Source of the DNA: an uncultured virus (IMG/VR IMGVR_UViG_2806310815_000005)
Taxonomy: Duplodnaviria > Heunggongvirae > Uroviricota > Caudoviricetes
DNA: 64,000 nt
IMG/VR virus record: IMGVR_UViG_2806310815_000005
Direction: 5' to 3' (one strand)
Shown here: in pieces, positions 17,211-62,910 of the stretch
Position numbering within the stretch: the first letter of the stretch is position 1
Layout of the letters: each line of letters opens with the position of its first letter
Made by a program: the position numbers and the translations under genes
Notes under the pieces: generated by a model
Databases searched by the model: none
Told to the model about the DNA's origin: nothing
The model's input: the letters and a program-made list of their open reading frames with translations, nothing else

Positions 17211-17594
17211 TTATGTGGCATTAAAAGTCACCACTTCTATCACGTTCTGAAACTGCTTGAACTTCTGCAATCATATCAGTCCATCTTTTTTCAGCTTTAT
17301 CACATATACAGCAAATCACATATTTTCTACCGCAATATTCACAATTAGATAAATCACCAGATAAATTCTTTTTTACCTTGTCTGTTTTCCATTGTAATTC
17401 CATAACTTTATTGTATGTTTCAATATCTAATTGTAAACATTCTTCCTTTGTCAAAATTCTGCTCATAATAATTAACGCCACATAACACTGTATATAAGGC
17501 ATTGCCTCTGTGGTCTTTTTTAAAGTTTATACTAATTTTAATCTTTCATTCATTCTATTAAGGTTCGTGAGGGCAACGCCTCATATACTAAACG
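17211..17594 (+). mobile_element. Solitary integron-like gene cassette
   Basis: Starts at G|TTATGTGGC (17210-17219) and ends in an attC-like site whose left core GCCACATAAC (17477-17486) is the exact reverse complement. It contains one antisense ORF. Confidence 0.8.
17221..17502 (-). CDS. Cassette ORF, small Cys-rich (CxxC...CCxC) protein; probable start ATG 17466
   Basis: ORF track. The upstream extension lies inside the attC arm, so MSRILTKEE... is the more plausible start. Confidence 0.55.
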   Translation of the reverse strand: MPYIQCYVALIIMSRILTKEECLQLDIETYNKVMELQWKTDKVKKNLSGDLSNCEYCGRKYVICCICDKAEKRWTDMIAEVQAVSERDRSGDF

Positions 17595-17600
17595 TTACAC
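17477..17600 (+). repeat. attC-like recombination site
   Basis: ACATAAC-act-GTATATAAGGCATTGCC ... GGCAACGCCTCATATAC-taaac-GTTACAC. Confidence 0.8.
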
Positions 17601-17810: not shown

Positions 17811-18719
17811 TTAAAGCCTTAACCTCCCTTCCATCTGTTTACTATTCCACGGCAATACTACCTCCCCCTCATCATAATAGAAGTCTCTATCTAACCAAAT
17901 TACTTCTGGCGCGATTTCTTCACAAATTCTACCGTTGTGATAAGTTAGATTGTTATAGTCATCTATTATCTTGGCTTTTATTTGTAAGTATTGTTTGTAG
18001 GTGTAGTATTGATTGTGTATTGGTCTAAATCTGCGGCGAGTTTTTATTTTCCCCATTTCCTCTAATTTATCCTTTAATCTCTTCCCGCGTTGTTTTCTTG
18101 CTGTTTGATTTTCGCAGCCGTCATCATATACATATTTTGCAAATGCTTTATTTGATAAAATAGTGTTTTTACACCATTGTGGGTTGTTAGGATATAACTT
18201 ACCCTCTTCGATAGCTCGGTCTATTTGTCTTCTTAATTTTTTAGACACCTTACCATCTTCCCTTGCGAGAAGCCTTATTCCTTTGAGCAGTGTTCCTTTT
18301 TTATCAATTGCTCTTTGCTGATCTTGTATTTGGGAGCATATAATAACAGACATCGCCATATATTTTGTGTCTGTTATCTTAGTACATAATTCAATAGGTA
18401 CTTTTTTATTGTTTTTATTGTTAAATCTAAACGCTAATGTTTTTGAACCGACCAAGAAAAAACCGCCATCAGAAGTAAATCTACCTAAATCTAAATATAT
18501 TAGATCAGATATATACTTTCTAAGGGCGGTCTGCGATATTCCCGTCTTTTCTTGTAGTAATTTGTAGCCTTTTAAGCCGTTTTTAGGCGCAATGTAGTGA
18601 TTACCCTCTCTAGCTTTTAAAAGGTGCGCATAAACAGCAATAGACCCATAGCAATCCACTTCACTATTCTGATGAATGTGAAAGAAAACTTTTGAGTCTA
18701 TCCAAGATATATTACGCAT
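17811..18719 (-). CDS. Hypothetical basic protein with winged-HTH-like segment
   Basis: GYKLLQEKTGISQTALRKYISDLIYLDL HTH pattern; preceded by a structured leader. Confidence 0.45.
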   Translation of the reverse strand: MRNISWIDSKVFFHIHQNSEVDCYGSIAVYAHLLKAREGNHYIAPKNGLKGYKLLQEKTGISQTALRKYISDLIYLDLGRFTSDGGFFLVGSKTLAFRFNNKNNKKVPIELCTKITDTKYMAMSVIICSQIQDQQRAIDKKGTLLKGIRLLAREDGKVSKKLRRQIDRAIEEGKLYPNNPQWCKNTILSNKAFAKYVYDDGCENQTARKQRGKRLKDKLEEMGKIKTRRRFRPIHNQYYTYKQYLQIKAKIIDDYNNLTYHNGRICEEIAPEVIWLDRDFYYDEGEVVLPWNSKQMEGRLRL

Positions 18720-19930: not shown

Positions 19931-20680
19931 TTATTTAAATATTTTTAAGTAAGTTTTGTACAAACTACTAATTTCTTTGATTGTATTTTTTACTAACTTT
20001 TCTGTTTCTTTTAGTCTTTTTTCGTCCCAACTATAAGGTTCATACCATATCTTTTTGCCTACTGTTAGAGCTTCTCTCCCGCCGCCTTGCATACACTGAT
20101 AACCACCTAATCTTTCAATAATACAATACTCGGCTTCTTTTACAATCAAACCTTTCTGTTTTAATCCCCAAATATAGATTTCAATTTGATGTTTTTCAGG
20201 TTTATGTAAATCTTTCTTACTGCTTTCAGATTTGGTTTTATAATCTCTTAGCAGAAGAACGGTTTTATCAATTGGCGGCGTAGAATCATCCAAATAACCT
20301 AAAACAACTACGTCTAAATCTTCTAAGTAAATTAAAATTTCTTCTTGATAAACTCCTAACGGTTTTACTTTATCTAAAGTTTCTAATTCTTCTTTAGTGA
20401 AATTTTCTTTACCTTTCTTTTCAGTTACATAATCCTCGACCTCTGTACCAAAGGTCGCCCATCCTAAATCAGGGTACTTTTCACCTAAAAAGTATTTTCT
20501 CATATACTCAAACTTACCTAACAGACCTGTGTTAAATCCACTTTTACTGTTAAAGGTTTCTATTTGAGACCAAGAGACACAATATTTACCTATGTATTTT
20601 TTATGTTCTGGATTTTCTCCTCCTTTTCTCCAAAGGAAGTCTGTATATTTTTTAGGTAATTCTATTTTTAGTTTTGGCAT
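19931..20680 (-). CDS. PD-(D/E)XK nuclease superfamily exonuclease
   Basis: VSWSQIETF...FGTEVE...GYLD...RDYKT...QIEIY motifs. Confidence 0.7.
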   Translation of the reverse strand: MPKLKIELPKKYTDFLWRKGGENPEHKKYIGKYCVSWSQIETFNSKSGFNTGLLGKFEYMRKYFLGEKYPDLGWATFGTEVEDYVTEKKGKENFTKEELETLDKVKPLGVYQEEILIYLEDLDVVVLGYLDDSTPPIDKTVLLLRDYKTKSESSKKDLHKPEKHQIEIYIWGLKQKGLIVKEAEYCIIERLGGYQCMQGGGREALTVGKKIWYEPYSWDEKRLKETEKLVKNTIKEISSLYKTYLKIFK

Positions 20681-21576
20681 TATAACTCTTTTACAAAATT
20701 AGTAATTTCTTCTTCCTTTTTCTGTTTAACAGCTTTTTTATCTCCTTTTTGTTGATAAACTGACAACAGTAAACTTTCTATGTTATTCTTATCGTTTTTC
20801 GATAATTTTTTCTTGCCTATTAACTCTTTAATTTCTTCTTGAATCTCAGTTGTAAAATTACCTAAAGACATAAGTTTTTGTAATAAAGGCTTTTCTTCTA
20901 CTTCAACATCTTCATCTAAAACTTTAACAGTGACTTCCGATGCAAATATCTTATCTTCTCCTGTAAAGCTATAATAAACGTTTACAAGGGTTTTTATATA
21001 ATCTACCTCGCTGTCATCTAACTCTTGTGTTTTACCTGCTAAAAACGCTTTATATACGTCTTCTCCTTCTATAATGTTGTGATCGATACCTAAGTTGTAA
21101 GCGTGTTCCAATAACGTGGATTTAAACCATCCAATTCCTTGAACATACTCAGAAACACTAATGGTTTGTTTTAAATTCCAGGGGCGCATACCAAGATGAT
21201 TGAGCGATGGTGGTAATATACTCATACTTAGATTATTTGCTGCCATTCGAGTAGTAACAAAAGGTAAAGTAAAGGCTGCATTCCAAGTAGCAACAGAATA
21301 AGAACTACTGTTGTTTAAAATGTTCAATAGTTCCGTTAAAACCGATTCTTCTGTTCCTTTTAAAATTTGTACTCTTAACATACCGTTATTTACAAAACCT
21401 AAAGTTACTGAGTGTATTTTCCCAAACAAAGGATTTGCCGCCGACTCAGATAAAAAAACAGATTCTAAATCTTGAAGGTCTTTGTAATCTTCATACTTAT
21501 TCTTATACATTTCTAACAACTCTTCTGTTGGTTGCTTTGGTAATGTAAGTAATTTTAAAAATATTGTCTCTTTCAT
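20680..21576 (-). CDS. PolB-type 3'-5' exonuclease-like protein, possibly inactive
   Basis: NPLFGKIHSVTLG, EESVL..L, WNAAFTLPFV..R, RPW. The canonical acidic catalytic residues are not evident. Confidence 0.5.
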   Translation of the reverse strand: MKETIFLKLLTLPKQPTEELLEMYKNKYEDYKDLQDLESVFLSESAANPLFGKIHSVTLGFVNNGMLRVQILKGTEESVLTELLNILNNSSSYSVATWNAAFTLPFVTTRMAANNLSMSILPPSLNHLGMRPWNLKQTISVSEYVQGIGWFKSTLLEHAYNLGIDHNIIEGEDVYKAFLAGKTQELDDSEVDYIKTLVNVYYSFTGEDKIFASEVTVKVLDEDVEVEEKPLLQKLMSLGNFTTEIQEEIKELIGKKKLSKNDKNNIESLLLSVYQQKGDKKAVKQKKEEEITNFVKEL

Positions 21577-21751
21577 AATTTAATTTTTAATTGTTGTTTT
21601 ACTTCTCTTAAATCTTTAACTAAAGAACCGTCTAAATCTTCTAATGCAAATATAGACAATTCAATTATATCTAACATTTGAACTCTCGTTAAAGTATTGT
21701 TAAACTTCTGTTTTATGTTATTGTTATCGTCTGTATAACAATTTTGATCAC

Positions 21752-22543
21752 TCATATTGGTGAATTTACTTCATTTAATATATCTTTTGAAACGTGTGTA
21801 TAGATTTCCGTAGTTTTTGAATTCTTATGCCCTAATACTAACTGTATTGTTCTTAAATTTTCTTTTGACTCAACAAGACTCGTCGCATAGCTGTGACGGA
21901 TAATATGTGGATTAATGTCTAAATACTTGTGAGATATGTTTCTTAAACTACTATAAGTGTACTTACCGCCAGTGCCTTCAAATAAAAATTGTTTTGGTTT
22001 GTACTCTTTAAAATACTCTCTTAATAAAATTAAATTATTTTTTGAAAAAGGTACATATCTATCTTTGTTAAATTTAGAATTTCTAACTAATAACAACATT
22101 CTACTTGAGTCTATATCTTCTATTTTTAAATTTAACACTTCAGATGCTCTTAAACCTGTACCAAACATCAAAGATAAGATAGCTTTATGTTTTAAATTAA
22201 CTATCTTGTTAATTTTCAGTATTAATTTTTGTTTCTCTATTACCCTTGGCAACTTTCGTTGTTTTCTAGGTCGATTAAAATCTACCTTGTTGTACTTCTT
22301 TCCTAAAACTTTAGAGTATAAGAATTTTAAACTACTTAAAACTTGATTTTGCTGAGAAACAGAAGAAAATCTATAATTCTTAATATAATTTTCAAAATCA
22401 GAAGAATTTAAATGGATGTACTGCTTCTCTATTTGACAAACAAATTCAGATATATAGTTTAAATATATACGTTGTGTATTTTCGGCGTAATTTAAAAATA
22501 TAAGTTTTTCACTACAAATCTTTATAATTTTTCTATTTTTCAT
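21752..22543 (-). CDS. Tyrosine recombinase (integron-integrase-like / XerD family), putative cassette integrase
   Basis: N-terminal SAM-like region (YAENTQRIY...SQQNQVLSSLKFLY). Catalytic R (GLRASE), K (KFNKDR), HxxR (HIIRHSYAT), LGH and Y (TTEIYTHV). Lies directly beside the cassette array. Confidence 0.9.
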   Translation of the reverse strand: MKNRKIIKICSEKLIFLNYAENTQRIYLNYISEFVCQIEKQYIHLNSSDFENYIKNYRFSSVSQQNQVLSSLKFLYSKVLGKKYNKVDFNRPRKQRKLPRVIEKQKLILKINKIVNLKHKAILSLMFGTGLRASEVLNLKIEDIDSSRMLLLVRNSKFNKDRYVPFSKNNLILLREYFKEYKPKQFLFEGTGGKYTYSSLRNISHKYLDINPHIIRHSYATSLVESKENLRTIQLVLGHKNSKTTEIYTHVSKDILNEVNSPI

Positions 22544-22574
22544 ACTCTAAAGTCTTTGTTTATAGGTGTTTAGA

Positions 22575-22604
22575 TATTAGTTATCGATATATAGTAGTTA
22601 TGCA
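22575..22604 (+). promoter_or_regulatory. Putative attI-like primary integration site
   Basis: ...tatcgatatatagtaG|TTATGCA. This G|TT core has no palindromic arm, lies 54 bp from the integrase start, and begins the first cassette. Confidence 0.6.
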
Positions 22605-22918
22605 CAAGCAAAAGAGCCTGTGCCTTCAACGTCATATCCTACCCATCTACTCACAAGAATAAATTTTACACCTTTAGGGGCTTTTTTCAACTTTCTTCTA
22701 AACGCTTTTACACTTCTACAACTTTGGTGCGAGCTATAACCTTTCTCACCTGCTTTGGGGTTTTGTTCCCATCTATTAGTATTATAATTAAACCACCATC
22801 CATTTTCAAAGGTCGTAAAGCCCATAAATCGGTAATTTATTCTTGTTCTCTTTTGTGCTTTATATTTAAGTTTCATCTTGTCTAATTTTTGCCAGATGCA
22901 TAACAAAGTGTATAGCAA
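22598..22918 (-). CDS. Cassette 1 ORF, hypothetical (probable start ATG 22876)
   Basis: ORF track; its stop codon is the reverse complement of the TTA in the G|TTA core. Confidence 0.6.
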   Translation of the reverse strand: MLYTLLCIWQKLDKMKLKYKAQKRTRINYRFMGFTTFENGWWFNYNTNRWEQNPKAGEKGYSSHQSCRSVKAFRRKLKKAPKGVKFILVSRWVGYDVEGTGSFACA

Positions 22919-22991
22919 ATAGCCTATTAATATTCAGTTCTTAATTCGTTGGTTCGTGCTTCGGCTACTTGCCATACACAAACCGTTCTAA
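22897..22991 (+). repeat. attC-like site 1
   Basis: TGCATAAC-aaa-GTGTATAGCAAATAGCC ... GGCTACTTGCCATACAC-aaacc-GTT. The left core is complementary to the cassette start GTTATGCA. Confidence 0.85.
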
Positions 22992-23027
22992 CAAATAGCA
23001 AAAATGCCTGCGCTAAGTTTGATCTAC

Positions 23028-23252
23028 TTATTTGTCTAAAGTTCCTATATGGTAAGAATCGATGTTATCAAACCAATAGTTTATCCCTTTTTCACTTAAA
23101 GTACGATCGATGTCTATTTGGCAAAGACAAGCATCGGGATTCACATCTTTATAAGCTTCGTCTCTTACCGGCTCGAACTTAAAGTGTTCTTTAAACTGTC
23201 TTGGTGTTTCAATTTCTTTTTCTCCTTCTTTTATTACTATCTTCTGGCATAT
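23028..23252 (-). CDS. Cassette 2 ORF (74 aa, ATA start or start-loss pseudogene)
   Basis: Manual translation: (ATA)CQKIVIKEGEKEIETPRQFKEHFKFEPVRDEAYKDVNPDACLCQIDIDRTLSEKGINYWFDNIDSYHIGTLDK*. There is an in-frame TAA two codons upstream of the ATA. Confidence 0.45.
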   Translation of the reverse strand: MCQKIVIKEGEKEIETPRQFKEHFKFEPVRDEAYKDVNPDACLCQIDIDRTLSEKGINYWFDNIDSYHIGTLDK

Positions 23253-23343
23253 AGTTTATCATTTTAAGTTATTACTGTTTCAGATTTTCCATACTTCCTT
23301 TTTGCGTTACACGCTTAGCCTTCGCTTATATTTTTACTACTTG

Positions 23344-23700
23344 CAAGAACTGTGTATAACAACCATACGTCTAAGGTATAAATCACTTTAATAGTCTTTT
23401 TTTGGCTGTCTCCATCTAATACCTTCCCATTCCCCGAAAACTAAATATCGTTCATTATCGTTACAAACCTTTTCAGCACTATCTCTTCTTACGTTCTTTC
23501 TTTCTCCATTAGGGTAAACTAACCAGCATTTATAATTTTCTCCTTCTGTAGATTTTAATCTTGCTCCTATTTGTAAAGCTTCTAGTATCATATTTTGATA
23601 ATCACTCATAATTCTGTTTTTAAAAGCCAAAAAAATTAATGGCTTGGTTATTAATTAATCGTTATTGTTGTAGTACGGTTGTTATACAATTCCGTTAGCA
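23344..23700 (+). repeat. attC-like site 2, expanded (about 355 bp) with an ORF in its loop
   Basis: CAAGAAC-tg-TGTATAACAACCATAC (from 23344) pairs with GTACGGTTGTTATACA-attcc-GTT (to 23696). Confidence 0.7.
23388..23630 (-). CDS. Hypothetical ORF located between the arms of attC site 2
   Basis: ORF track, 80 aa; probable start MSDYQNMILEAL. Confidence 0.55.
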   Translation of the reverse strand: MAFKNRIMSDYQNMILEALQIGARLKSTEGENYKCWLVYPNGERKNVRRDSAEKVCNDNERYLVFGEWEGIRWRQPKKDY

Positions 23701-23701
23701 A

Positions 23702-23959
23702 CTATTTGCCAATACGAATAGTATCGCCAATTTTAAAAGTCTTGTCACTATAAAATTTAAACCCTACATTATTTTCACCATCAGTAATTCTATATTCGTA
23801 TTTGCACTTTTCTTCTTCAAGTTCATATACATAGTACACTATCATTTTATCAGAGTCGGTTACTTTATCATTTGGTACTCTTGTGTCATCACAAGAAAAG
23901 AAAACAGTTGCTAACAAAGTATATAGTGTATAGCTAATAAGTGTTTTAAATCGTTTCAT
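23702..23959 (-). CDS. Cassette 3 ORF, probable lipoprotein
   Basis: Signal peptide ending VFFS-C (lipobox-like). The signal peptide is encoded by the attC3 left arm. Confidence 0.55.
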   Translation of the reverse strand: MKRFKTLISYTLYTLLATVFFSCDDTRVPNDKVTDSDKMIVYYVYELEEEKCKYEYRITDGENNVGFKFYSDKTFKIGDTIRIGK

Positions 23960-24039
23960 TTGTTTATCTATTTAAGTTATTAATAATTCAAAGTTCAAGC
24001 GTTTTTGGTCGCTACACACCATATACAACCACGTTGGCA
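23906..24039 (+). repeat. attC-like site 3
   Basis: AGTTGCTAAC-aaa-GTATATAGTGTATAGC ... GCTACACACCATATAC-aaccac-GTT. The left core is the exact complement of the cassette start GTTAGCAACT. Confidence 0.85.
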
Positions 24040-24045
24040 GTAATA

Positions 24046-24270
24046 TTAACGTCTAAACTTACCACCAACAACTTGTTCTAGTTTTCTTAAATCTTCTGGC
24101 TCTAAAACTATGGTCTGTCCGTTTTTGCTAACCGCTATTATTTGGTCGGTAAAACCAGCATATTCCTTGTTAGTTGTATTTCCGCACAGCTTCACCATAC
24201 TACTTCCAACATCACCTATAAATAATGCTTTGTTTTGTTCCGTTTCTAAGTCTATTTTATCCCAATTCAT
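24046..24270 (-). CDS. Cassette 4 ORF, hypothetical
   Basis: ORF track, 74 aa, ending 12 bp from the G|TT core. Confidence 0.6.
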   Translation of the reverse strand: MNWDKIDLETEQNKALFIGDVGSSMVKLCGNTTNKEYAGFTDQIIAVSKNGQTIVLEPEDLRKLEQVVGGKFRR

Positions 24271-24307
24271 TGTTTTATAATTTAAAAGTTTATTAATATT
24301 TACACAG

Positions 24308-24335
24308 CACTATTCATAGCTGCATCCCGTTAGTC
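24308..24335 (+). repeat. Right half of a degenerate attC-like site 4
   Basis: cactattcatagc-tgcatccc-GTTAGTC; no matching left arm or AAC core found. Confidence 0.45.
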
Positions 24336-24509
24336 GTAATAACGCCATTCAGTAATTGTATCTTTTTCTTGAGTTATTACTTCAACTGGGTATTTTATAG
24401 CCCACGTAGCACCCCACCCTTTTTGCCACTCTAATTTATATATTTTGCCATCTTCGTCAGGTAACAATGCATATAGCCCATTTCGTCCCTCAACGTACCA
24501 TATGCTCAC
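24330..24509 (-). CDS. Cassette 5 ORF (59 aa, GTG start)
   Basis: Manual translation MSIWYVEGRNGLYALLPDEDGKIYKLEWQKGWGATWAIKYPVEVITQEKDTITEWRYYD*. The stop overlaps the G|TTA core. Confidence 0.45.
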   Translation of the reverse strand: MSIWYVEGRNGLYALLPDEDGKIYKLEWQKGWGATWAIKYPVEVITQEKDTITEWRYYD

Positions 24510-24517
24510 CGTTAGGG
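24459..24517 (+). repeat. Short attC-like site 5
   Basis: AGGTAAC-aat-GCATATAG ... CCATATGC-tcacc-GTTAGGG. Confidence 0.6.
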
Positions 24518-24521
24518 TGCA

Positions 24522-24785
24522 TTAGGATATTTCAAATTGGGTTTGTGCAATCCCAAGCTCTTTAACTATCCCTAACTTTTCTTTTCTGTTTACTAAGTTT
24601 GTTGCGCTTTCCCCACTTCCGTAGGTGCAATTACTTTTCAAATCAGTTGCAGTCCATACAAAAGCACCACTACTTTTTTGATGCTTGCCTGCATTAGTTC
24701 TACGGAAGTTACTTAGTTCTAATCCTAAATCTTTTTTTATTCTTTGTTTAAGTCTTTCAAACATAATAATAACGCCACATAACAA
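24522..24785 (-). CDS. Cassette 6 ORF, hypothetical (probable start ATG 24764)
   Basis: ORF track; the upstream extension lies inside attC6. Confidence 0.6.
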   Translation of the reverse strand: MLCGVIIMFERLKQRIKKDLGLELSNFRRTNAGKHQKSSGAFVWTATDLKSNCTYGSGESATNLVNRKEKLGIVKELGIAQTQFEIS

Positions 24786-24898
24786 CGTATATAAAACATT
24801 GCTTTAGTGGTCTTTTGTTTAGTTAATTTATAATTCAATTCCTTGTGTTTATCTATTAAGTTTCGGCATACAACGTTTCATATACAAATACGTTGTAA
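24774..24898 (+). repeat. attC-like site 6
   Basis: GCCACATAAC-aac-GTATATAAAACATTG ... CAACGTTTCATATAC-aaatac-GTTGTAA; closely related to the site at 17477. Confidence 0.85.
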
Positions 24899-24907
24899 AC
24901 AATAAAA

Positions 24908-25078
24908 TTATTCAGTGCTTACAACAAAGAAGAAATGTTCATCTTCATCTCTACTTCTTACAGCTATACTATGGCTAATTATTTTATATCCTAATTTTTC
25001 TATTCTCTCTATTTCTTCTTTTAAAATGTAATGGGAGCAGTTGGGGTGTGCTTTAAATCTTATTATTCTGTCAGTCAT
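24908..25078 (-). CDS. Cassette 7 ORF (56 aa)
   Basis: Manual translation MTDRIIRFKAHPNCSHYILKEEIERIEKLGYKIISHSIAVRSRDEDEHFFFVVSTE*. Confidence 0.55.
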   Translation of the reverse strand: MTDRIIRFKAHPNCSHYILKEEIERIEKLGYKIISHSIAVRSRDEDEHFFFVVSTE

Positions 25079-25087
25079 AATTTTACA

Positions 25088-25224
25088 GTTTATAACAAGG
25101 GCTATAATTCATACCCTTGTTAGGTTTATGCTTAATTCAATATTTTTCTTTCTATTCACTTATGTACAGTTTGATAGGTTCGTGCATCTAATACGCTACG
25201 ACACCATACCACCATACGTTCAGA
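25088..25224 (+). repeat. attC-like site 7 (array end, arms poorly paired)
   Basis: ATAATTTTAcaGTTTAtAAC matches the complement of the cassette start GTTGTAAACAATAAAATTAT at 17 of 20 positions. The loop has the GGTTCGTG motif and the site ends catac-GTT. Confidence 0.65.
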
Positions 25225-25437
25225 AGAATTGACCTGCGGAAGTATCAAACAAATATACATTATCTTCTTCTACAACTATATTATCATTTGATTTTCCTAT
25301 TTCAAAAGCTCCGTGCCTATCTTCGTGACTAATCGAGTAGCCGTATTTTTTACAAACATTTTTTATATCCTCAAAAACTGTTTTAAACCTTCGCTTGTAT
25401 ATGCAAACTGTCTTTTATTATAGTCCCGATTCTTCAT
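25220..25437 (-). pseudogene. Frameshifted small ORF flanking the array
   Basis: MKNRDYNKRQFAYTSEGLKQF.. stops early. The shifted frame continues EDIKNVCKKYGYSISHEDRHGAFEIG...AGQFF*. Confidence 0.4.
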
Positions 25438-28400
25438 ACTTCTAAAAATAAGGTAATCCTTGTACCGTTTCTCCTGTTAATTTGTTTTTAATTTTAAATC
25501 CTAAGCTTTTTCCTGTTCCTCTTATTGCTGATATCCTTTCTTTTGCTGTTTTTAAAGCTTCTGTGGTGCTTTTAAAGTTTTCTTTACTGTGAGGATAACC
25601 TCTGTCATATTTGTCTCTGTCTGTGTATCTCTCTAGTATTACTTTCACCTCTCTTTAAATTTAATTATTTTCTCTTTTCTTTCTCCGCGCCAATTCCAAT
25701 TTAAAACAACGCCATCTTTAATGTCGTAGACGCTTGGTCTAGTGTAAAGATACAAAACAGCTAATAAAATTAATGTTAACATAGTGTTATTTATTAAAAT
25801 TTCTTAGGTCACTCAATGCTTGTTGGTGGCATTTCTTATACGTGTTTGTTAACTCTTCTAAATACTCCATCACTTCAGAATGCTTTAAGTTCTCAAACAA
25901 ATACATACCGTCTTGTTTTGCGGATTCGATGTGATCCTCTTTTACTAGTTCTAATAACTTATTAAACATTACTTTTTAGCTGTATTATAAATAGTTTGTA
26001 AATCTTCTCCGTAAACTGTAAACTCTTCACTGCCGTGTTGTAAAACAATAGAAACAATACCAACTCTCTCCATCTGTTTTAAAGTTTTTTTAGATAGGTT
26101 TTTATCACCATATTTAATATGTCTTTCTGTTTCTTCTCCTTTACGGCATCCTATTTTAGGTAGTTTAGGTTCTTCTTCATAAACCTTTTCAAACCATAAA
26201 TCTAAAACTCCTGCTTTTTTTAGCTTCTCTTCTCCGCTTCTACCTACTCCTAGTATTTGACCATTTTTAATAGCCGTACCAATACTATAACCCCCTTCTA
26301 TCTCTAAGACTGCATCTGCATAATCTAAACAGCTCTCTTTTAATTTATAACCTATTAGTTTTTTATCTTTTTCCATATTATCTTGTTTTAGAACATATTT
26401 CTTCATTTGTCCAAAATGGTTGGTGTTTCCAAATAACTCCGCTAAAAACAGACTCGTTATTTACATCAAATAAATTTCCACAATGTACTTTATCATCCCA
26501 TAAATATAACTGATGATAAATTTTACCGTTTATCTTTATAAATTCCATAATTCATTTGTTTTAACTTTAAACGGTTTGTCTCCGTAGCTAATTTGACACT
26601 CTTCAAATATTGTATTCAATTTATAACCAAACATCAAACCCGCGTCGAAAATATCTCCTTTGCTCTGACTGTTTAAGTTTTTCTCTTTTACTTTCCTGTT
26701 TATATATTCTACAACTTTACTTGGTGTGTATGTATGGTACCAAGTACCTTATGAATCTCTAGTTATAACAACGATATCCCGCCAATTATAATAGTAGACT
26801 GTTTTAACCATTTCTCAAATAATTTAAGTGGTTTTCAATATCCTGATCACAATTAATTACTGTATTTACCTTCCAATGCCCAAATTTGTGTTTTGCAACT
26901 GCCTCATTTCCCGCGAAATTACAGTATAAAAAACGTCTACCTTTACTGTCTCTTAATGAAATAAAAGCTGTTCCTATTGGTGTGTTAATGTAATGTGTGT
27001 GTCCAAAGTGTAATCCTTTTGTTGCTCCGAATCTGGTTAAGTCTGTTGTTTTCATCTTATTGAATGTTTAAAAAGTCTTTTAATGTGGTCTTCTATAATC
27101 TTGTTCCAATCTAGTTCATTGTAATCTTCTGAATAAGTTGTCATAATTGTTTGATTTTAAATACGTTGTAAATATAAGAATAAAAACAACAAGTAAATAC
27201 TAAAACAATGTTAATATTTAAAACTTACCTAATTACCTCAATTTAAACTGACTCTAAGGTTAGTTTTCCGTGTTTTTGAAGTAAGTGTTGTAAATTATCT
27301 AAACGTTCTTCTAACTCGCTTAAAATATACTCTACGTTACTACTATGTATGTTCCACTTTCTACTATGTTTATTTATTGTTTGATGTGCGCCAAAAAACT
27401 CGAAAAACCTATTTAAATCAAACTGTTCTTTAAATCGCATAAACAAACTGTAAAACTCTTCATAAGGTGTTTTTTCTACTTTTACATACAATTTACCAAA
27501 TACTGTATCTACTTCATCATTTTTAACGTTAAACTTTTTATAAATATTTTCTACTTCTTTATTGAATTGTTTTGCTGTCAAAACTACTTGTTTTAAATTA
27601 GTTCAATATCCCTTTGTACTCTTTCTGATGCAACACCTTCAAATACATCCATAATCCAATCTAAAGATTCTTCAATTTCGTATTCGATATCTGCATCATT
27701 GTAACCCTCTTCTCCTTCCTCAAGATTTTCTTTTTCAGTGTATTCCCCTAAATAACCTCGATCACCCATATTCCAAGTCTCCAAAGAATAAACCTCTAGT
27801 GCGTCGGGTTGCCAACTTCCTTGTGATAACCAACCACCAGAACCTAACGTGCCATCTTCTTCTACATAAATTGGTATTCTCCAACCTGTCCAAGAAAAAT
27901 CTAAGGCGTTATACAATTCTTTTTTGAGAAGTTCTCTTAAACTTTCTGTATCTATTTGTATTTTTTCTAGTGTAGTATCCATAATTCTAATCATTTATTA
28001 ACCCAATTACATAATGTTTTGTATCGTGATAGAAACTCATTGAGGTCTGTTTAATAGTGTCGTAATATTCTCCGTAAAGGCTTATCACTAATTCATTTTC
28101 TTCGGCTTCTTCAACAGCTTTTAAAATTTCCATTTGATCCTCTAAAAAAGCTATTTTACTTTCAATGTTTTCAAATTCATCTTCTAACCTGCTTATGATA
28201 TTCTCCGTTACAGTATCTTCGTTTTCTTCTGAGTAATCACATCCATAAGCTTCTGCGCTATTTTCAAATGCTGAATACATTGTTACACCTGTTCTGTACC
28301 ACAGTTGCCATCCGTCTCTTTTTTCAAAGCTTTGAATTGATAAATTGTATTTGTCTGCTAATTCCTGCGCTTGTTCAAAGGTATAAAAACCTGTTATAGC

Positions 28401-33900: not shown

Positions 33901-36588
33901 TACCGTAAGGAATAATTAGTGTTAATGTTCTGTTAAATTAAAGTACCGTCATCTAAAATTGCTTCAAGCCCTTTTGCGTACTTAATAGCTTCTTTTATAT
34001 CTGTAAAACTTTCAATATTACAATCATTAGTGCTGTTATCAAAAGCGTTCCATTTCTTGTTTTCAAACCAACACCCACCTTTAATTTCTTTATCTTCAGG
34101 GTGTTCGTAAAATTCGCAAGTGTGGTTATTCAAAATTTCTTGTAAATGTTGTTTTGCTTTTTCTCCGATAAGTATCATAACTCTATTCTTTTTAAATTAC
34201 ATAGTAAATATACAAAACATTTACCGCCGCATAAAATATAAATTGTTAAAAATATCATAAAATAAAACCCCATACAACAAAAAATCCCCTATCAAAACAC
34301 TACTAAAGATAGAGGATTAAAAACACAATTATGAAACACCTTTATTTAGTGCCTACTGTAAGACTGTATATAGTTTCAATACAGCTATCTAAATTTCGTC
34401 ACAAGGTTAAAGGCTTTACCTCAACTATCAAAAGATATTAAAATTCATCTCCTTTCTCTCCAAAGAATATTATAAAATCATTTGGGTTACTATTATTCCA
34501 TACTTTAAATACATCCCCGTAGTCTACATCTTTACCTATGTGCAGTACATTTTCCCACTCTTCGGGTCTTTCGGATGTTTTTTCAACTATAAAGTCAGTC
34601 ATAAGTATCTTTTTAAATACTGTTTTCTTTTTGTCTTTTCTTTGCTGTTCTATTGTGGTGTATTTTGTCATTGTTTCTTATTGTTTTTTGTACTTCTTAA
34701 CGGCTTTTTTTAGCTCGTCGAATTTATCGTAGGTTATTAATTGGCAACCTACTTTAATCCCCTTCTCTGTTAGTTCCGCTTCATAACTGTCTGTTATTTG
34801 TACTTTTACTGTTTCTTTGTATACATCTATTGCGGCGATAAATTCGGGAAATGATAATACTTTAAATAAATATTTATCTACATCATTTTTATTACCCCCT
34901 ATAAATTCTTTACCGTTGTATATAATGTACGTGTTTCTTTCGTCTGTTGAATAGCCTTGTAATATTCTGTATTTTGTGCTTTCATATACTTTTAACCCTT
35001 TACCCTCAGCCATTTGTAGTATTACCTCAGCTTGTAGTTGTGTCGGTTTGTAAATTGCTATTTTTTTCCATTTGTGTTTTATTTTTTGTAAATGTATAAA
35101 TTGTTTTCTTTTGCGGCAAGTTTTTAACATAAAATTATAGGCTAGGTAAAACTTTATAACCTCCATCCACATAATTAATACCTTGTACTAATTACATACC
35201 CTCCCTAACCTATACTTTAAAAACTACTACTCAAACAATTCTACTATTATTGTGATTCCTGTTCCGCATTTACTCTGTAAATATACTATTATTTTTTCAT
35301 TGTTGATTTACTTTTAACTTTTGTTTAACTGTTTGTTTTAGCGGCATTTTTAATACCCTCTTTAACTGCTTCAAAAGCTTGCACCGTCCTATCATTATTG
35401 AAAATAGGTGTCATTCTATAAGATTGCATTAACTCATAAAATTCCTGGCTGTTTAGATATTCTTCCATAGCTTAACAATTCTTTAGATCACTATACAACT
35501 GTTCTAAATTGTAGTTTGCAATTAATTCTTTTCTTGTGTCGGTCTTACTTTGTGCCGATTGTTTTAAAGCTTCCTGTTTGCTTATTTGTGCTTTTAGGTA
35601 GTCTTTGTACTGTTGTTTGTCTTGTTGATTGTACGTCATTTTATTTGCTGTTTTGATTGTTTTAAAAATAGATAATACTAAGTAGTAACGCCATCACTAT
35701 CGGGCTTCTATCGGGTATATTTAAACCTTTAGCCTTTAGTAGTTATCTATATTGTAAAGTTATGGTGCATTTAGAAACAACCATACCAAGGTTCAATTTC
35801 TTCGCCATCAGCTACTATTTCTGCGTAAGTCCAATACTTACTTTCAAGGTCGTTTACACTTTCGATGAATTTTTCAGCTTCTTCTCTTGTATCGAAAAGT
35901 TTAGGTTTAATCCAGTCAGCACCTTCACGACCTTTACCTCTTGCTACTATTACTATAAATGATTTCATAAAATAAAAACTCACCATAACACTGTATAAAA
36001 TCAAGTGGGGTTATGTGCTAATTTTAACCACTTCGGCTGTTTAATTTAGTTTTTGCAAGTCGGAATGTGTTAGCCGTTCAATCCCCCACCTGCTTTTATA
36101 CTTTAACGTTAATTCTTTTTTGTTTTCTGCTGTGTTAAAGGTATGCTAATTCTTAGCAAAGATTAGTATCGATACTTGTACCTCTGCTTCATACTTTGTT
36201 AATCCTCCGTAATGATTAGAAGTGCCATTAATTCCTACCCCATAATTATTTTTTGCCTCCTTCCATACGTAAACATCATTTAAACCGTATAAATTTTTAA
36301 AGTACTGTTGTTTTCTTCTTCCGTCGATTGTCATAACTATTAATTTAAGCGTTTTCTAATTTATTATTTTTAGGATTGAAGTATCTTACCGTCTGACCTA
36401 TAACTTTATTGTTACGGTGTGTATTTTTCATTGGTGCAGTTATCATATACCGCCCATCGCTTTGCTTATACACCTTAAAATCTTTCATTGTTTGTCCGAA
36501 AAACTTTAAAGATTTACGTGTGAAAAAATGCGGTGATGTCTCGCTTGATAGTCTTTTAATGTCGTAGATTGTCATTTTAGTAGTGTTT

Positions 36589-51847: not shown

Positions 51848-51981
51848 AACGTGTTTGTATATGAAAAGTAACGTGTTGATTTGCGTTATTTTTCAGCCGT
51901 TGTTGTTTGTTGCGTGATAAACTTTTCTCTCGGGTTATCACTTGCCGAAGTTATTTTTTATATACGGTGTTGTACGTAGGC
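51843..51981 (-). repeat. attC-like site, reverse polarity
   Basis: Plus strand: CTCACAAC-gtgttt-GTATATGAAAAGTAAC ... GTTATTTTTTATATAC-ggt-GTTGTACGTAGGC. Confidence 0.75.
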
Positions 51982-52048: not shown

Positions 52049-52264
52049 ATGTCAAACATAAAATTACACTCGATAGTAAAACTGAAAGCTGAACCTAATT
52101 CGGGTGAAATGGTTGTCGAAGATATCAAATCATCTTATCGTAACTTTCCACACGCTACATCTGAAAATCCTGTTGTATTCGTTAAATTTTGGAATCCTAA
52201 AACGCACAATTACGAGTTTGCTCAATTCTACTCACAAGTCCTTATAGTTGTTGATAAAGAGTAA
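52049..52264 (+). CDS. Small YodC/DUF2158-like protein inside a cassette
   Basis: IVKLK....EMVVE...V.V.FW......F....L pattern. Confidence 0.5.
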   Translation: MSNIKLHSIVKLKAEPNSGEMVVEDIKSSYRNFPHATSENPVVFVKFWNPKTHNYEFAQFYSQVLIVVDKE

Positions 52265-52408
52265 ACTTTTTCTCTTTCCATTAAGTCAGTTACGTAATCA
52301 TACATCATTTTAAAACTTGTTACGTTGTCAGTTTTATTCAGTATTGTTTTTATTATGTAACTGATTGTTTCTTTTTCTAATTTTTGTTCTGTGTTCATAC
52401 GTTTTTTA

Positions 52409-52467
52409 GCTTACGTACAACGTGTTTGTATATGGCGCGTTTTAATGCGTTATATACTCTGTTGTGC
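52409..52467 (-). repeat. Short attC-like site, reverse polarity
   Basis: Plus strand: GCTTACGTACAAC-gtgttt-GTATATGGCGCGT-ttta-ATGCGTTATATAC-tct-GTTGTGC. The core is complementary at 12 of 13 positions to GTTGTACGTAGGC at 51969. Confidence 0.8.
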
Positions 52468-59475: not shown

Positions 59476-60515
59476 TAACAAAGTTTTTAATTTACCAAAT
59501 ATATAAATTATTTTTTAATGTTAAATTTTTCCGTTTAATTCTAAATACACTAATCCCGCAATAAAACCGCAGAATAAAGCATACAATAATATTAATTTAA
59601 ATATATTCTTCATCAATATCTATTTTCCCTTCCCCTAAAACACCACAAATCCAAGAAGAAAAAGAGTCATAAGTCACTTGCTCAAGTTCAGTTTCGTAAG
59701 TAATGTTGCAGTTTTTACAGTAAACATTATCACCAAAACTACCTTGCATTTCTTCACCACATTCAGGACAATCATATTCAAACATAATAAATAATTTATA
59801 GTAAAAACCAATAGTCGGTATGTCAATTCATCTCTTTAATAACCGTTGCAATTAATACCCACTAGGTTTGCAACTTGGTGACTATCGGCTTATTTTACCA
59901 CCACAGATTAACTGGTTCTGCGAGACCTTGCTCTTAACTCTTACGTTACAGGTGATGTGCAAATATATAATATAAGTATTTAATATACAAGCTTTTTGTT
60001 CATTATTTTAAGATGTTCACGTAAAATGAACACATTATTTTTATGAATAAAAAATCCCCGCAAAATTAATTGCAGGGATAAAGTTTAACATAAAAATAAA
60101 CAATCAATCTAAAATATTCCGTTCTTATCAGTTAACGGTCTAATTATTTCAATATCTGGCTTAAACATTGATAAATTACTAAATAGTATCTCTACCATTT
60201 TTTTAATAGCTCTTGCTGACATATCATTACTTAAATCATACTGTCGCCAAAGCTCCAATGTAAAATTCCTAATAAAATCTTGCTCTTCATCTATAAACCT
60301 ATCTGATATAATTACAGAAAGATTTTCATCCTCCCATAAATATAGATAGAAGTCGTGGTAATTTAACTTATTCACTTGTTTTGGTTTTATAGTACAAACT
60401 TAGAAAAATAATCTCAATAACTAAAATTCCTAAATTTAAACTTGACCCCTACAATAAAAAATCAACATAAACAAACTTTAATACAAAAAAATTTGCATAA
60501 TTCAAAAATTTATCT

Positions 60516-60523
60516 TAAGTTTG
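60516..60523 (+). promoter_or_regulatory. Bacteroidota-type -7 promoter box for the rightward operon
   Basis: TAAGTTTG (TAnnTTTG) 24 bp before ATG 60547, with TTTG about 24 bp further upstream, at the strand switch. Confidence 0.55.
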
Positions 60524-60546
60524 CAAAAGTTTAACATATATTTACA

Positions 60547-60918
60547 ATGTCAATACCATTATATAAGAGTAAAACAAAGTATAAACACGAGGTAGAGCTC
60601 GTTGATAGGATTATATCTATTTACTCGACTATTAAAAAAGATAAGAAAAACCAAATACTACCTTTTGAGAAAGAAATCCTCATATATTATATTTTAAACG
60701 GATTCTCTAAAGAAACAAAAGAGATTATAAAAACCGAAAAAAAGAAAAATAACAGTCAGATAGATACAGCAAATTGTAACTTAAGGCGCAAAGGATTTTT
60801 AATAAAAGGTAATAAAAACCAAAAGATTTCTTATGTAAAAGAAGAAATACAAGAAATGGTAGACAGTTTTTTAAATAATAAAAACCAGTTCTACGTAATA
60901 CAATTTGAAAAGAAGTAG
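60547..60918 (+). CDS. Hypothetical protein (first gene of the rightward operon)
   Basis: ORF track, 123 aa. Confidence 0.6.
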   Translation: MSIPLYKSKTKYKHEVELVDRIISIYSTIKKDKKNQILPFEKEILIYYILNGFSKETKEIIKTEKKKNNSQIDTANCNLRRKGFLIKGNKNQKISYVKEEIQEMVDSFLNNKNQFYVIQFEKK

Positions 60919-61422
60919 ATGGAAGAGAGTGAAATAGCCTTTGAGAACGATATCTACCGAGAGATTGCAGAAGAAAAAGGTTGGGACTACAAGGAGGTAG
61001 AAGAGCTAATAAGTATGCATTTACAGTATTTTAGAGAAGTACGAGTAAAAGATCCAAATATAACCGCCTTTAAATTAGGCAAAAATTTGGGAAGCTTAAT
61101 GTGTAATATGTACTTAGTAAATAGAGATAAAATAAAATTTGAAGGGTGGGTGAACGGAAAAAGTGAGTATAAGCAAGATTGGAAAAAAAGTAGCCTAGAT
61201 GTAATAAATAAACGGAAGGAAAAAATGGAAGCTCATTGCAGATTAGCAGAAGAGCAAGGTAAAGTATCAAAGTATCTAAAAAAACCGTTTATATGGCTTC
61301 TTAAAAAGCCCATAGAGAAGATTAGAGGCAGTTACATACCTTTAGGGGTAGTAGAGAACAGAGCAGAATTATTTCGAGTTCTAGGAGAGTTTCAGAACAA
61401 AATAGCAAACGAGGATGAGTAA
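60919..61422 (+). CDS. Hypothetical protein with an HU/IHF-like N-terminus
   Basis: IYREIAEEKG...EVEELI...F.L...LGSL pattern; weak. Confidence 0.35.
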   Translation: MEESEIAFENDIYREIAEEKGWDYKEVEELISMHLQYFREVRVKDPNITAFKLGKNLGSLMCNMYLVNRDKIKFEGWVNGKSEYKQDWKKSSLDVINKRKEKMEAHCRLAEEQGKVSKYLKKPFIWLLKKPIEKIRGSYIPLGVVENRAELFRVLGEFQNKIANEDE

Positions 61423-62035
61423 ATTTAAAAACATAGTTAAATCTAGATTTATAAAAGGGGAAAGTTTACCTGATTGGTACGAAAAAAGATTATCTATATG
61501 TGCCTCTTGTGAGTTAAACTCTAAAAACATAGAGGATAAGTCGGGAAAAAGAATGGCTTGGGAGTTTATTGCAGGAGCTCATTGTACAGCCCCCACCTGC
61601 GGTTGCAGTATATCCCAAAAAGCAAAGATAGAAGAAGAGTCGTGTCCAATAGGTAAATGGGGCAAAGAAGCTGAACCACAAGTATTAGATCAAGGTTTTG
61701 TAAAAATAACAAATAATTCCGCAAATAAAGTAACAATACAAAAACAAGGTATAGCCTACTACTTAGATTACGGAACTATAATGTATAATGCAGATAGCAG
61801 TGTTAACTTAGAGTTGGAGTTTGACAGACCAATATATGATACGAATCTAACAACTACTTGTGGATGTACAAAATCGCAAGTAAAAGAAAAAGAAAAAAAT
61901 AAGTATTCTCTAACAATACAGTATGATACAACAAGGGTAGGAAGATTTGAAAAACCAATTATATTTAAGTTCAAACATAATAATGTAAATACCCAATTAA
62001 GATTTGTAATAAAAGGAAATGTAATAAAAAACTAA
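61415..62035 (+). CDS. Cys-rich domain plus DUF1573-like Ig domain protein
   Basis: RLSICASC...CGC...KAK...SCPIGKW followed by DYGTI...TTCGCT...YDT..VG.F.K.I. Confidence 0.5.
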   Translation: MSKFKNIVKSRFIKGESLPDWYEKRLSICASCELNSKNIEDKSGKRMAWEFIAGAHCTAPTCGCSISQKAKIEEESCPIGKWGKEAEPQVLDQGFVKITNNSANKVTIQKQGIAYYLDYGTIMYNADSSVNLELEFDRPIYDTNLTTTCGCTKSQVKEKEKNKYSLTIQYDTTRVGRFEKPIIFKFKHNNVNTQLRFVIKGNVIKN

Positions 62036-62451
62036 AAAAAAACGATGAGTGTAATAAAACAAGTTAAGATTATCACACAAAACACACAAGCGGTGATAAT
62101 AGAAAAAGACCAAGAATCTAATAACATCCATTTAACAACAGGAGAAGAGGTCTTTGAAGATTATAAAAGTTTTTTAACATATCTTACTTTGGAAGAAGCT
62201 GAAGTATTAGGTAGTGAACTTATTAAATTAGCAAACGAAATAAAAAACCAAAATGTTTAGACAATACGCAAAAAACGCAATCCCAAAAATGATAGAACAG
62301 TTTCCTGAATATACAGTAGGGGAATGTATTCTATCTATTATTAACCACAGAGAAAACAAAACAGTAAGTAAATCACAGTGGTTATCAGTAGCAACAGACG
62401 AAGATATATATACAGCAACTGAAAAAGCAATAGAAATAGAATCTCAAAAAG

Positions 62452-62910
62452 ATGAATAGCAACAACCTCCACGAAAGGGTGATACAACTCCACAGAGAAA
62501 TAAAAGAATATATTGATTTATTTTTAAAACAAAGTAAGGAGTTAAAAGAAAAAACCGCCGAAAAAGCAAAAGAGTATAAAGACCAAGAGAAAGCAAAAGA
62601 ATTAGCATTTGAAATCTTTATGAAAGGGCAAGTGCATCAAAGAGATATTGCTATATTAAAAAGTAAATTTGTAGATTTTTTCGATGCGTTTACATTATTA
62701 GAAAGCGACTTAGATTTTGATGAGGAGTTAAAACAAACCTACAATGCAATAAAAACGGAAGAACAAAAACGAGTGTACTTGGTTACAAAAGGACAATTTG
62801 AAGAAATTGAGAAAGGAGTAGAAAATAAAATCCGAGATAGTTATATAAAAAACAACACTTTTGAGCTTTTAAAAACACAATTTAACCAATATATAAAAGA
62901 TGTCGGATAG
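62452..62910 (+). CDS. Hypothetical helical protein upstream of terminase
   Basis: ORF track, 152 aa. Confidence 0.55.
   Translation: MNSNNLHERVIQLHREIKEYIDLFLKQSKELKEKTAEKAKEYKDQEKAKELAFEIFMKGQVHQRDIAILKSKFVDFFDAFTLLESDLDFDEELKQTYNAIKTEEQKRVYLVTKGQFEEIEKGVENKIRDSYIKNNTFELLKTQFNQYIKDVG

Follow-up and report, generated by a model that had tools for sequence, protein, structure and literature searches.

The window analysed here, the whole 64,000-nucleotide (nt) stretch of the uncultured-virus record IMGVR_UViG_2806310815_000005, contains at 22598–25218 an array of small open reading frames (ORFs) and hairpins. We read it, with a probability of about 0.78, as an integron-like platform that is working or was working until recently, that is native to a Cellulophaga-like marine phage, and whose ORFs are flipped onto the recombinogenic strand. 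In such a platform, a small recombinase related to Xer and IntI would come immediately after an armless attI-like site and about nine cassettes in the direction of transcription. The folding strand, the side of the crossover box, the position of attI and the orientation of the integrase would all be those of the classical bottom-strand geometry, and only the ORFs would be flipped. The elements are as follows (aa, amino acids).

21752–22543, minus strand: tyrosine recombinase of 263 aa, Xer/IntI-like, without the IntI-specific insertion.
22544–22604, minus strand: armless attI-like site; the minus strand reads ..GCATAAC-TAC-TATATATCG.., and G|TT stands at 22597/22598 on the plus strand.
22598–22985, minus strand: cassette 1, with ORF 22598–22876 (coding score 0.35) and hairpin A (22902–22987); its first bases, TTATGCA, are the exact complement of the TGCATAA before the TAAC of the hairpin (8/8).
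22986–23369, minus strand: cassette 2, with a 38-aa remnant (23028–23144) and no intact ORF, the frame apparently broken in a run of A; mini site B (about 23343–23372) is weak, with core GTC, not GTT.
23370–23694, minus strand: cassette 3, with ORF 23388–23609 (score 0.58) and degenerate site C (about 23673–23697); no complementarity was found between its flanks.
23695–24033, minus strand: cassette 4, with ORF 23702–23959, which has a possible lipoprotein signal (..FFSC), and hairpin D (23913–24035), which contains the ATG (23959); its beginning, TTAGCAAC, complements GTTGCTAA ahead of the hairpin (9/9).
24034–24329, minus strand: cassette 5, with ORF 24046–24270 and hairpin E (24208–24331), which contains the ATG (24270); flanks complementary at 5/7.
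24330–24511, minus strand: cassette 6, with ORF 24330–24509 (GTG start; TTG at 24467 possible) and, within the ORF, the weak short site F (24462–24513); no complementarity was found between its flanks.
24512–24892, minus strand: cassette 7, with ORF 24522–24764 and hairpin G (24784–24894); the hairpin and the 5′ leader resemble those of a solitary cassette at 17.5 kb.
24893–25119, minus strand: cassette 8, with ORF 24908–25078 and the 29-nt mini hairpin H (25093–25121); flanks complementary at 8/9.
25120–25441, minus strand: distal end, with an ORF-less unit, site I (the G of its GTT at 25218) and a frame-broken ORF (25220–25435); weak, assigned by eye.

The stops of the ORFs lie 0, 42, 18, 7, 12, 0, 10 and 15 bp from G|TT in cassettes 1 to 8, and 10 bp from it in the solitary cassette. 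The original prediction, which had put them at or within about 15 bp of this core (42 bp for cassette 2), is close to this, cassette 3 lying at 18 bp; its statement that the starts lie in or beside the hairpins is borne out in the array. Read 5′ to 3′ on the minus strand, a cassette would begin with the C of its AAC box and continue through a bulge of 4–6 nt, a stem with fixed G·T wobbles, the loop, the returning stem, TGTTA with 6–7 nt of flank, a leader and the ORF, to finish in a complementary flank whose last bases are TAA. Circularisation would bring the two flanks together in an R-box stem of about 10 bp under the hairpin, as in integron cassettes.

On the minus strand (the s-strand), a full site consists of 6–7 variable nt, TAAC, a G with a bulge of 4–5 nt, a stem of about 19 bp, the loop, the stem again, T, GTTA, and another 6–7 variable nt, with spacers of 4–6 nt on one side versus 1–3 nt on the other. 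Most sites measure about 46, 86 or 124 nt, and a few reach about 185 nt. The consensus of 13 aligned 86-nt-class sites, taken from four related loci and the window, has 24 pairs, 16 of them with compensatory changes; a G·U closes TAACG/TGTTA in 12 of the 13, and a second G·U is fixed in all. We counted wobbles on the integrase-sense strand of 53 phage sites (score at least 11; drawn from the window and from six phage sequences), G:T and A:C being tolerated alike in the scoring, and obtained 83 G:T versus 16 A:C. By our own arithmetic, the base composition of the strand predicts near parity. In the window, six hairpins of minus polarity are strong (A, D, E, G, and those at 17484–17596 and 35987–36110), and their stems have 11 G:T and no A:C on the minus strand. 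This excess over near parity suggests that the minus strand is the one that folds. The architecture is that of attC sites, in which an imperfect hairpin formed by one strand combines paired R boxes (AAC/GTT) and an L stem with an unpaired spacer and a variable loop. The modules recombined by Xer at dif (integrative mobile elements exploiting Xer, IMEX, and pdif) have a duplex core with two arms of about 11 bp around a spacer of 6–8 bp; the phage sites, with arms of about 19 bp and 46–186 nt between boxes, did not match such a core, no search aimed at dif having been made.

Consecutive sites are tied together by their flanks. In extended arrays, reverse complementarity joins the 7 nt that follow one GTT to the 7 nt that precede the next site's AAC, and it is perfect in 25 of 42 links. 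The mean complementarity is 5.5 of 7 positions, as compared with 3.05 for the site's own other flank; in 2000 shuffles of flank partners, the mean was 3.06 and the maximum 3.71. The extended phage arrays G001 and G002 have 12 and 18 sites, and their homologous cassettes include one compensatory change between the two flanks.

The hairpins may also be viewed as RNA-level or regulatory intergenic elements of early phage genes, such as stem-loops acting as leaders or stabilisers, or as modules of the PeSL type shuffled by homologous recombination, with no integron polarity and beside an ordinary integrase. PeSLs are promoter-stem-loop modules that Arbiol and colleagues are said to have described in T4-type phages in 2010; there, likewise, repeated stem-loops flank small, variable phage ORFs, with no recombinase or att site implied. 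In favour of such a view, the wobbles lie on the transcribed strand, and each ORF has a hairpin in its 5′ leader, in some cases enclosing the start codon. Hairpin-plus-leader frames are also common between phages while the ORFs differ: the homologous cassettes of G001 and G002 have in common the hairpin, a leader of about 45 nt and a trailer of about 30 nt, around unrelated ORFs. Finally, in Cellulophaga phage phi13:2, single-arm copies of the motif are found in at least eight intergenic gaps of a small-gene cluster, beside a different recombinase, of 429 aa. Yet no T-tract terminators and no conserved promoter motif of the Bacteroidetes type were found in the sites, and a cassette-specific complementarity of ten nt across the ORFs has no RNA or promoter rationale. 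The phage array differs from PeSLs in its box-precise junctions, in the complementarity of its flanks and in its adjacent integrase. The homology breaks and natural indels that we describe below, exactly at AAC boxes beside the integrase, and the wobbles of host hairpins, which are antisense to the ORFs, also speak against an RNA element, and we consider this explanation very unlikely.

Every coding-scored ORF of at least 56 aa within 22598–25218 is on the minus strand, in agreement with the original prediction. The coding score is derived from codon usage, trained on the 29 long minus-strand genes of the window. Six array ORFs and the solitary ORF score 0.31–0.58, genuine small minus-strand ORFs averaging 0.43 (standard deviation 0.10); the four longest plus-strand ORFs of the array score −0.18 to −0.41, and spurious plus-strand ORFs average −0.18 (standard deviation 0.18). 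In 38 of 39 cassette intervals from six phage sequences, the folding strand carries the longest ORF (medians 87 versus 42 aa). The phage arrays thus lack the top-strand ORFs, read from a Pc promoter at the attI/intI side, that characterise integrons. However, almost all ORFs of at least 70 aa between 1 and 60.4 kb of the window are on the minus strand, the direction switching only in the last 3.5 kb. Because this rule is genome-wide, the strand of the array ORFs adds nothing on its own, and the non-trivial part is the polarity of the hairpins, which we tested against phage relatives and host arrays.

Among viral sequences, we found eight related contigs, with integrases 43–56% identical to that of the window. 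Four of them (L001, L002, L003 and L007) have integrases 90–99% identical and several downstream genes in common, and almost no array ORFs in common (two short matches only, of 24–34 aa); the array is variable between close relatives, as integron arrays are. When L001–L004 and L007 are aligned, the sequences are unrelated until TAAC-TAT-YATATATAA, about 55 nt before the ATG of the integrase, and conserved thereafter. The window itself behaves similarly with respect to contigs of another sample: one DNA contig (X8) agrees with it as far as 22604, seven bases beyond G|TT, and differs from there on, and hairpin A recurs exactly (22900–22987) between flanks that differ, so that breaks fall at the box edges 22604, 22900 and 22987.

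A related phage family shows natural indels at the attI-like position. The integrase of Polaribacter phage Freya is 34% identical to that of the window. Apart from a 307-nt unit with one ORF, present in Freya_10 and absent from Freya_9, these two isolates are 100% identical over 3793 nt; Freya_6 likewise has 472 nt that Freya_5 lacks. The point of insertion is in both cases ..YAAC|ACCCCTATAAC.., about 50 nt ahead of the integrase start, and the isolates have the distal part in common while larger blocks differ proximally. Together with the homology breaks of the relatives at the integrase-proximal junction, these indels point to insertion and excision beside the integrase, with the attI-like site as the probable entry of cassettes. 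The original prediction had proposed mapping where new cassettes insert, and the Freya variants differ at the integrase-proximal, not the distal, end; its corollary that the newest cassette sits at the transcription-distal end follows from insertion beside the integrase. New cassettes would then enter at the downstream end of the transcription unit.

Since the flank rule fits a cut at either box, we used the ends of the arrays to decide the cut side. At the integrase-proximal end, the last ORF ends in a flank followed by TAAC and then the conserved armless box, with no hairpin or GTT box after it; at the distal end of G001 and G004, the backbone leads directly into a TAAC-hairpin. With these ends, the counts of hairpins and ORF modules are equal only if a cassette is a hairpin with the ORF downstream of it, cut at the AAC box. 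The rightward polarity claimed at the outset, with the armless site first (G|TT at 22597/22598) and the full hairpins A, D, E and G after it, is therefore upheld, and the wobble bias agrees. The backbone is common to G004 and G001, their junctions being about 130 nt apart. We also considered the distal backbones of G001 and G002 as evidence on the distal junction, but they turned out to be unrelated.

These array ends bear on a second explanation, in which we would be dealing with a classical integron whose reading strand is the minus strand: the cassette would be the ORF with its downstream hairpin, the crossover would fall in TGTTA, insertion would occur at the 25-kb end, and nothing would be inverted. 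On the coding strand, each ORF is indeed followed by a hairpin, and the flank rule fits equally well; the G002 array starts with a 3′-type half-site followed by an ORF with complementary flanks, and in Freya the closing inverted repeat is at the 3′ end of the inserted unit. It is, however, at odds with the last ORF before the integrase, which has no hairpin or GTT after it although the junction is the break between conserved and variable sequence, with the hairpins that start the G001 and G004 arrays right after the backbone, and with the integrase-proximal location of the Freya differences. Moreover, the long-spacer/AACG side and the wobble strand match the non-coding strand of host arrays, where an armless G|TT follows the integrase, and phage and host hairpins align only in reverse. 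We regard this classical reading as unlikely.

The host arrays come from a scan of one genome per prokaryote species, which returned 80 loci, nearly all from Bacteroidota (L020–L099), with integrase homologues 37–48% identical to the phage integrase. Hairpins of the phage-type design (69 in total) are present in 36 of the 80. On the gene-sense strand of these hairpins, we counted 121 A:C versus 21 G:T; since the host wobbles are antisense to the ORFs, whatever function the hairpins have in common cannot be one at the RNA level. Of the sites in the 17 multi-site loci that we checked for position, 46 lie downstream of the integrase and 4 do not. Of 26 intervals, 23 have the ORF on the strand that does not fold (ORF, then attC), and the flank rule is obeyed perfectly in 13 of 26 chain links. 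Three host loci examined closely have an armless G|TT site after the stop of the integrase, about 40 nt away in L039. Phage and host hairpins are 69–89% identical over 35–147 nt, on the reverse strand in 13 of 13 matches to host-type loci; the two forward matches are both to L027, a contig with the phage layout. Thus, a survey of orientation in phages and hosts, as the original prediction had suggested, gives ORF-then-attC on the top strand in hosts and attC-then-ORF on the bottom strand in phages. The inversion of ORFs relative to attC polarity is real and phage-specific, and the predicted inverted layout, with ORFs on the strand that folds and carries the crossover box, is backed by the relatives, the coding scores and the host mirror images.

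The Bacteroidota arrays (in Maribacter, Aequorivita, Arundinibacter, Seonamhaeicola and others) resemble those of the phages in the insertion-less integrase core, the hairpin family, the length classes and the flank rule. They differ in that the integrase has an N-terminal extension of about 100 aa, the array is downstream of the integrase, and the ORFs are on the non-folding strand; the cassettes are also larger (about 110–310 aa, including GNAT, HEPN, LprI and RDD families), whereas those of phages are small. Three examples are L039 (7840–12210), L065 (8250–14190) and L086 (8640–13360), each downstream of an insertion-less, Xer-like integrase of about 380 aa; in L065, an SSB gene directly follows the integrase.

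Outside the array, the window contains two solitary cassettes, the second of which was absent from the original prediction, and one unit of the opposite polarity.

17211–17596, minus strand: solitary cassette, with ORF 17221–17502 (score 0.44) and hairpin 17484–17596; flanks complementary at 10/10, and then, on the minus strand, a secondary site TAAC-TAT-ACTTATACAC.
35762–36110, minus strand: second solitary cassette, with a 124-nt hairpin (35987–36110) and an ORF ending at 35771; the flanks GTTATGGTG and CACCATAAC are complementary at 9/9, and TAAC-TTT-ACAATATAG then follows on the minus strand.
51848–51971 and 52419–52463, folding on the plus strand: pair of opposite-polarity hairpins, with complementary flanks around 435 nt; the unit encloses minus-strand ORF 52228–52398 (score 0.45) and the overlapping plus-strand ORF 52049–52264 (0.17, ambiguous).

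No phage homologue of either 52-kb ORF was found. The claim that all cassette ORFs are antisense to polarity is correct for the array and the solitary cassettes, and needs qualifying at 51.8–52.5 kb, where the hairpins fold on the plus strand and a minus-strand ORF is present. The unit looks like a classical-handed one, kept in the orientation that allows its ORF to be transcribed; it may be a host-handed cassette or a convergent gene pair. Its existence favours a third explanation, according to which there is no logic of expression at all: the layout would be a by-product of one-way phage genes, and cassettes of either polarity would be kept as long as their ORF was co-directional. Nearly all genes up to 60.4 kb face the minus direction, the composition of the strands changes sign together with gene orientation, and at 52 kb hairpins of opposite polarity flank a well-scoring minus-strand ORF. 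Such a by-product accounts for the direction of the ORFs, but not for the polarity of the attI–integrase module, and with it of the array, in every phage locus examined (the window, G001–G004 and L008), with hosts having the opposite one; we find it highly improbable. Since attI fixes the polarity within an array, expression there is open only to cassettes whose ORF lies on the folding strand, which constrains the pool of cassettes.

The recombinase matches Pfam Phage_integrase (101 bits) and Phage_int_SAM_4. Its best NCBIfam model is XerA_Arch (162 bits, cut-off 220), described as "site-specific tyrosine recombinase/integron integrase", with XerC and XerD models ranking close behind. Against the integron integrase models, it scores 148.5 bits in two stretches for TIGR02249, below the cut-off of 265, and 112 for PRK15417, whose cut-off is 435. 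The catalytic residues R132, K157, H213, R216, H239 and Y248 are invariant across six relatives. Aligned to VchIntIA (2a3v_A), residues 18–200 and 210–254 stand opposite 17–206 and 264–308 of the chain. The nine residues in between (201–209) stand opposite 207–263, which means that about 48 residues of the integron-specific insertion are missing in the phage protein. Judged by its sequence, the recombinase is Xer/IntI-like and falls outside IntI as that family is defined. In the VchIntIA structure, the IntI-specific insertion contacts the extrahelical bases, and Escudero and colleagues reportedly found in 2016 that it is required for attC recombination. According to the available text of Smyshlyaev et al., the insertion is incompletely conserved within their "integron-like" subgroup. 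An insertion-less integrase may be able to handle folded attC-like sites, which makes the enzyme of interest in itself.

Several observations weigh against a phage integron with flipped ORFs. The integrase is below both curated cut-offs for integron integrases and has no IntI insertion, and its recombination of hairpins is putative. Of the nine sites in the window, five are degenerate or weak (B, C, F, H and I), and the flank rule is poor for cassettes 3, 5 and 6. The G·T wobbles on the coding strand would equally suit a function at the RNA level, and the hairpins at 52 kb have the opposite polarity beside minus-strand ORFs. Taken by itself, the flank rule leaves the cut end of the hairpin undecided, so the polarity leans on the array ends and on Freya, whose integrase is distant (34%) and whose sites look different. 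Lastly, the beginning of the G002 array with a 3′ half-site fits the opposite polarity, unless it is a truncated hairpin; since it is 86% identical to the 3′ half of a full G004 hairpin, we read it as one.

Because the ORFs lie on the folding strand, their expression cannot come from a Pc at attI. Its source would be either signals within the cassettes or phage promoters upstream, by read-through. The simplest route would be read-through from upstream phage genes across the array into the integrase, in which case attC would give the mRNA a structured 5′ leader, and the cassette inserted last would be the one furthest from the promoter; the further suggestion of the original prediction, a bearing on how cassettes are created, is conjectural. 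No terminator-like site was found on the minus strand between 21 and 31 kb. Sigma-70-like sites occur at chance level (45 versus 47.5 expected), though phage-specific promoters may be present. The −7 motif of Bacteroidetes promoters is TAnnTTTG; it is not conserved in the sites and is not found at the distal edge of the array, and scanning for it gave a single intergenic candidate, at 29140. The original prediction had proposed TATCTTTAC as the promoter box, but this lies inside ORF 25645–25782 and ends in A-C where the motif ends in G, so that the match is incomplete. Eight contigs of a marine metatranscriptome (X5) cover 20000–27500 at 99% identity or more; being unstranded and possibly carried-over DNA, they are silent on transcription.

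The orientation may also matter for replication. The available text of a study of integron arrays (PMC5371416) associates the bottom strand on the lagging-strand template with more excision, and large stable arrays with its location on the leading-strand template. If the phage replicates in the direction of transcription, its coding strand would serve as the lagging-strand template, and the layout would promote turnover of cassettes. The composition of the strands tracks gene direction, and is hence uninformative on the direction of the fork: the plus-strand skews over 1–60400 are very strong, about −0.2 for GC and −0.17 for AT, and their sign flips exactly where gene direction does (60401–64000).

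Compared with classical integrons (class 1; Vibrio, VchIntIA), the phage system is alike in having a recombinase beside attI, a promoter-poor array of small ORFs and AAC/GTT R boxes. It is alike, too, in its unpaired spacer, variable loop and single folding strand, in insertion beside the integrase, in the integrase sense on the bottom strand, and in the first cassette bases, which complement the R box at the far end. It is unlike them in that the ORFs are on the bottom strand, attC comes before the ORF, and the stop is in or at the R′ box. Other differences are that there is no place for a Pc at attI, that the R-box stem is of about 10 bp with 6–7 cassette-specific bases, that the carrier is a phage, and that the integrase has 263 aa and no IntI insertion. 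Sedentary chromosomal integrons contain inverted toxin-antitoxin cassettes with their own promoters. There, likewise, the ORF is antisense to attC, but these cassettes are a minority, whereas in the phages the inversion concerns every array cassette in every locus examined.

Integron parts and clusters of attC sites have been reported in 21 phages, both virulent and temperate, including a Polaribacter phage (Qi et al. 2023, PMC9892861). As given in the available parts of that paper, these attC clusters without an accompanying integron integrase (CALINs) are alike in their attC-type sites and in having orphan DNA methylases among the cassettes. The set was found with IntegronFinder/HattCI and consists mostly of elements without an integrase or of pieces of bacterial integrons; a phage-native insertion-less integrase, an attI or a systematic inversion of ORFs is not described in the available portions of the main text. 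The two solitary cassettes, each of which is followed by a short TAAC-TNT-A.. box on the minus strand, may be likened to the attG-type insertion of integron cassettes at secondary sites, as presented in the available text of Loot et al. (bioRxiv 10.1101/2022.09.11.507474). As for the hosts, the available text of the IntegronFinder 2.0 paper states that an earlier survey had only In0 elements in Bacteroidetes, and that there is now one complete integron, in Salinibacter. We found no description of the phage layout or of the Bacteroidota arrays in the open-access main texts that we searched.

In the theory of integrons, attC polarity, insertion at attI and expression from Pc are linked, and the newest cassette is the best expressed. 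The phage system would keep the scaffold for recombination and flip the genes, the newest cassette being the furthest from the upstream promoter, just before the integrase. Scaffold and expression would then be separable, and the mirror pair of phage and host allows a test of fixed cassette handedness, for which the replication strand, expression and a barrier to exchange are candidate reasons. A platform of this kind also offers a mechanism for the hypervariable small-gene regions of marine phages, and would explain the size range of Freya. The isolates measure 44.0–48.9 kb, and the available text of their description (PMC8776804) was not found to explain this range. Among Freya_5, 6, 8, 9 and 10 (L012–L017), blocks of small ORFs gained or lost at one junction largely account for it, and the Freya_1 record begins exactly at the junction upstream of the integrase.

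The window is AT-rich (31% GC), and we read it as a large phage of a marine flavobacterium, Cellulophaga-like. In a DNA search of isolated phages with positions 20001–28000, only three short matches were obtained, all within hairpin/leader stretches; the short matches of the window are to Cellulophaga phage phi13:2 and to one uncultured phage. Segment 25076–25144 is 90% identical to an intergenic stretch of phi13:2. In this phage (record L009, 11.5–16.4 kb), the gaps of a cluster of small genes each hold a single-arm copy of the motif (CATAYAC..CGTTA), with full hairpins in a few, and next to the cluster lie a DNA methylase and the 429-aa tyrosine recombinase mentioned above. A search for tRNA genes in the window gave none. 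We also sought an empty site of the solitary cassette through the flanking gene at 17811–18719, and found no relative of the phage among viral contigs. In contigs from other samples, there are joints from 26095 to 22870 (depth 2) and from 27309 to 24731, and a 36-nt skip at 22924–22961, none of them at att boxes; contig X8 has a 1-nt deletion in the array, at 24285. The broken frames at 22986–23369 and 25219–25441, in runs of A, may be decaying cassettes or assembly errors.

In a broader and more tentative reading, which we hold to be possible but rather less than even, these arrays would represent a "mirror-image" integron of marine flavobacterial phages, with an insertion-less Xer-like integrase, a folding strand that would be the lagging-strand template if forks move with transcription, very high turnover on that condition, attC as the 5′ leader, and possibly a role as a store of counter-defence genes. 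If so, a cassette moved between phage and host platforms would land antisense and stay silent, and the array would be a rapidly shuffled store of small accessory genes, possibly for counter-defence. We screened 57 cassette ORFs, including the solitary ORF, with Pfam, and three belong to a known family: RNA ligase, DUF7448 and N6_N4 DNA methylase. The recognisable phage cassettes include those for an RNA ligase (PHA02142 OB and RNA_ligase; L001, 828–1892) and an orphan N6/N4 DNA methylase (L008, 4331–5098), for both of which functions in counter-defence are plausible.

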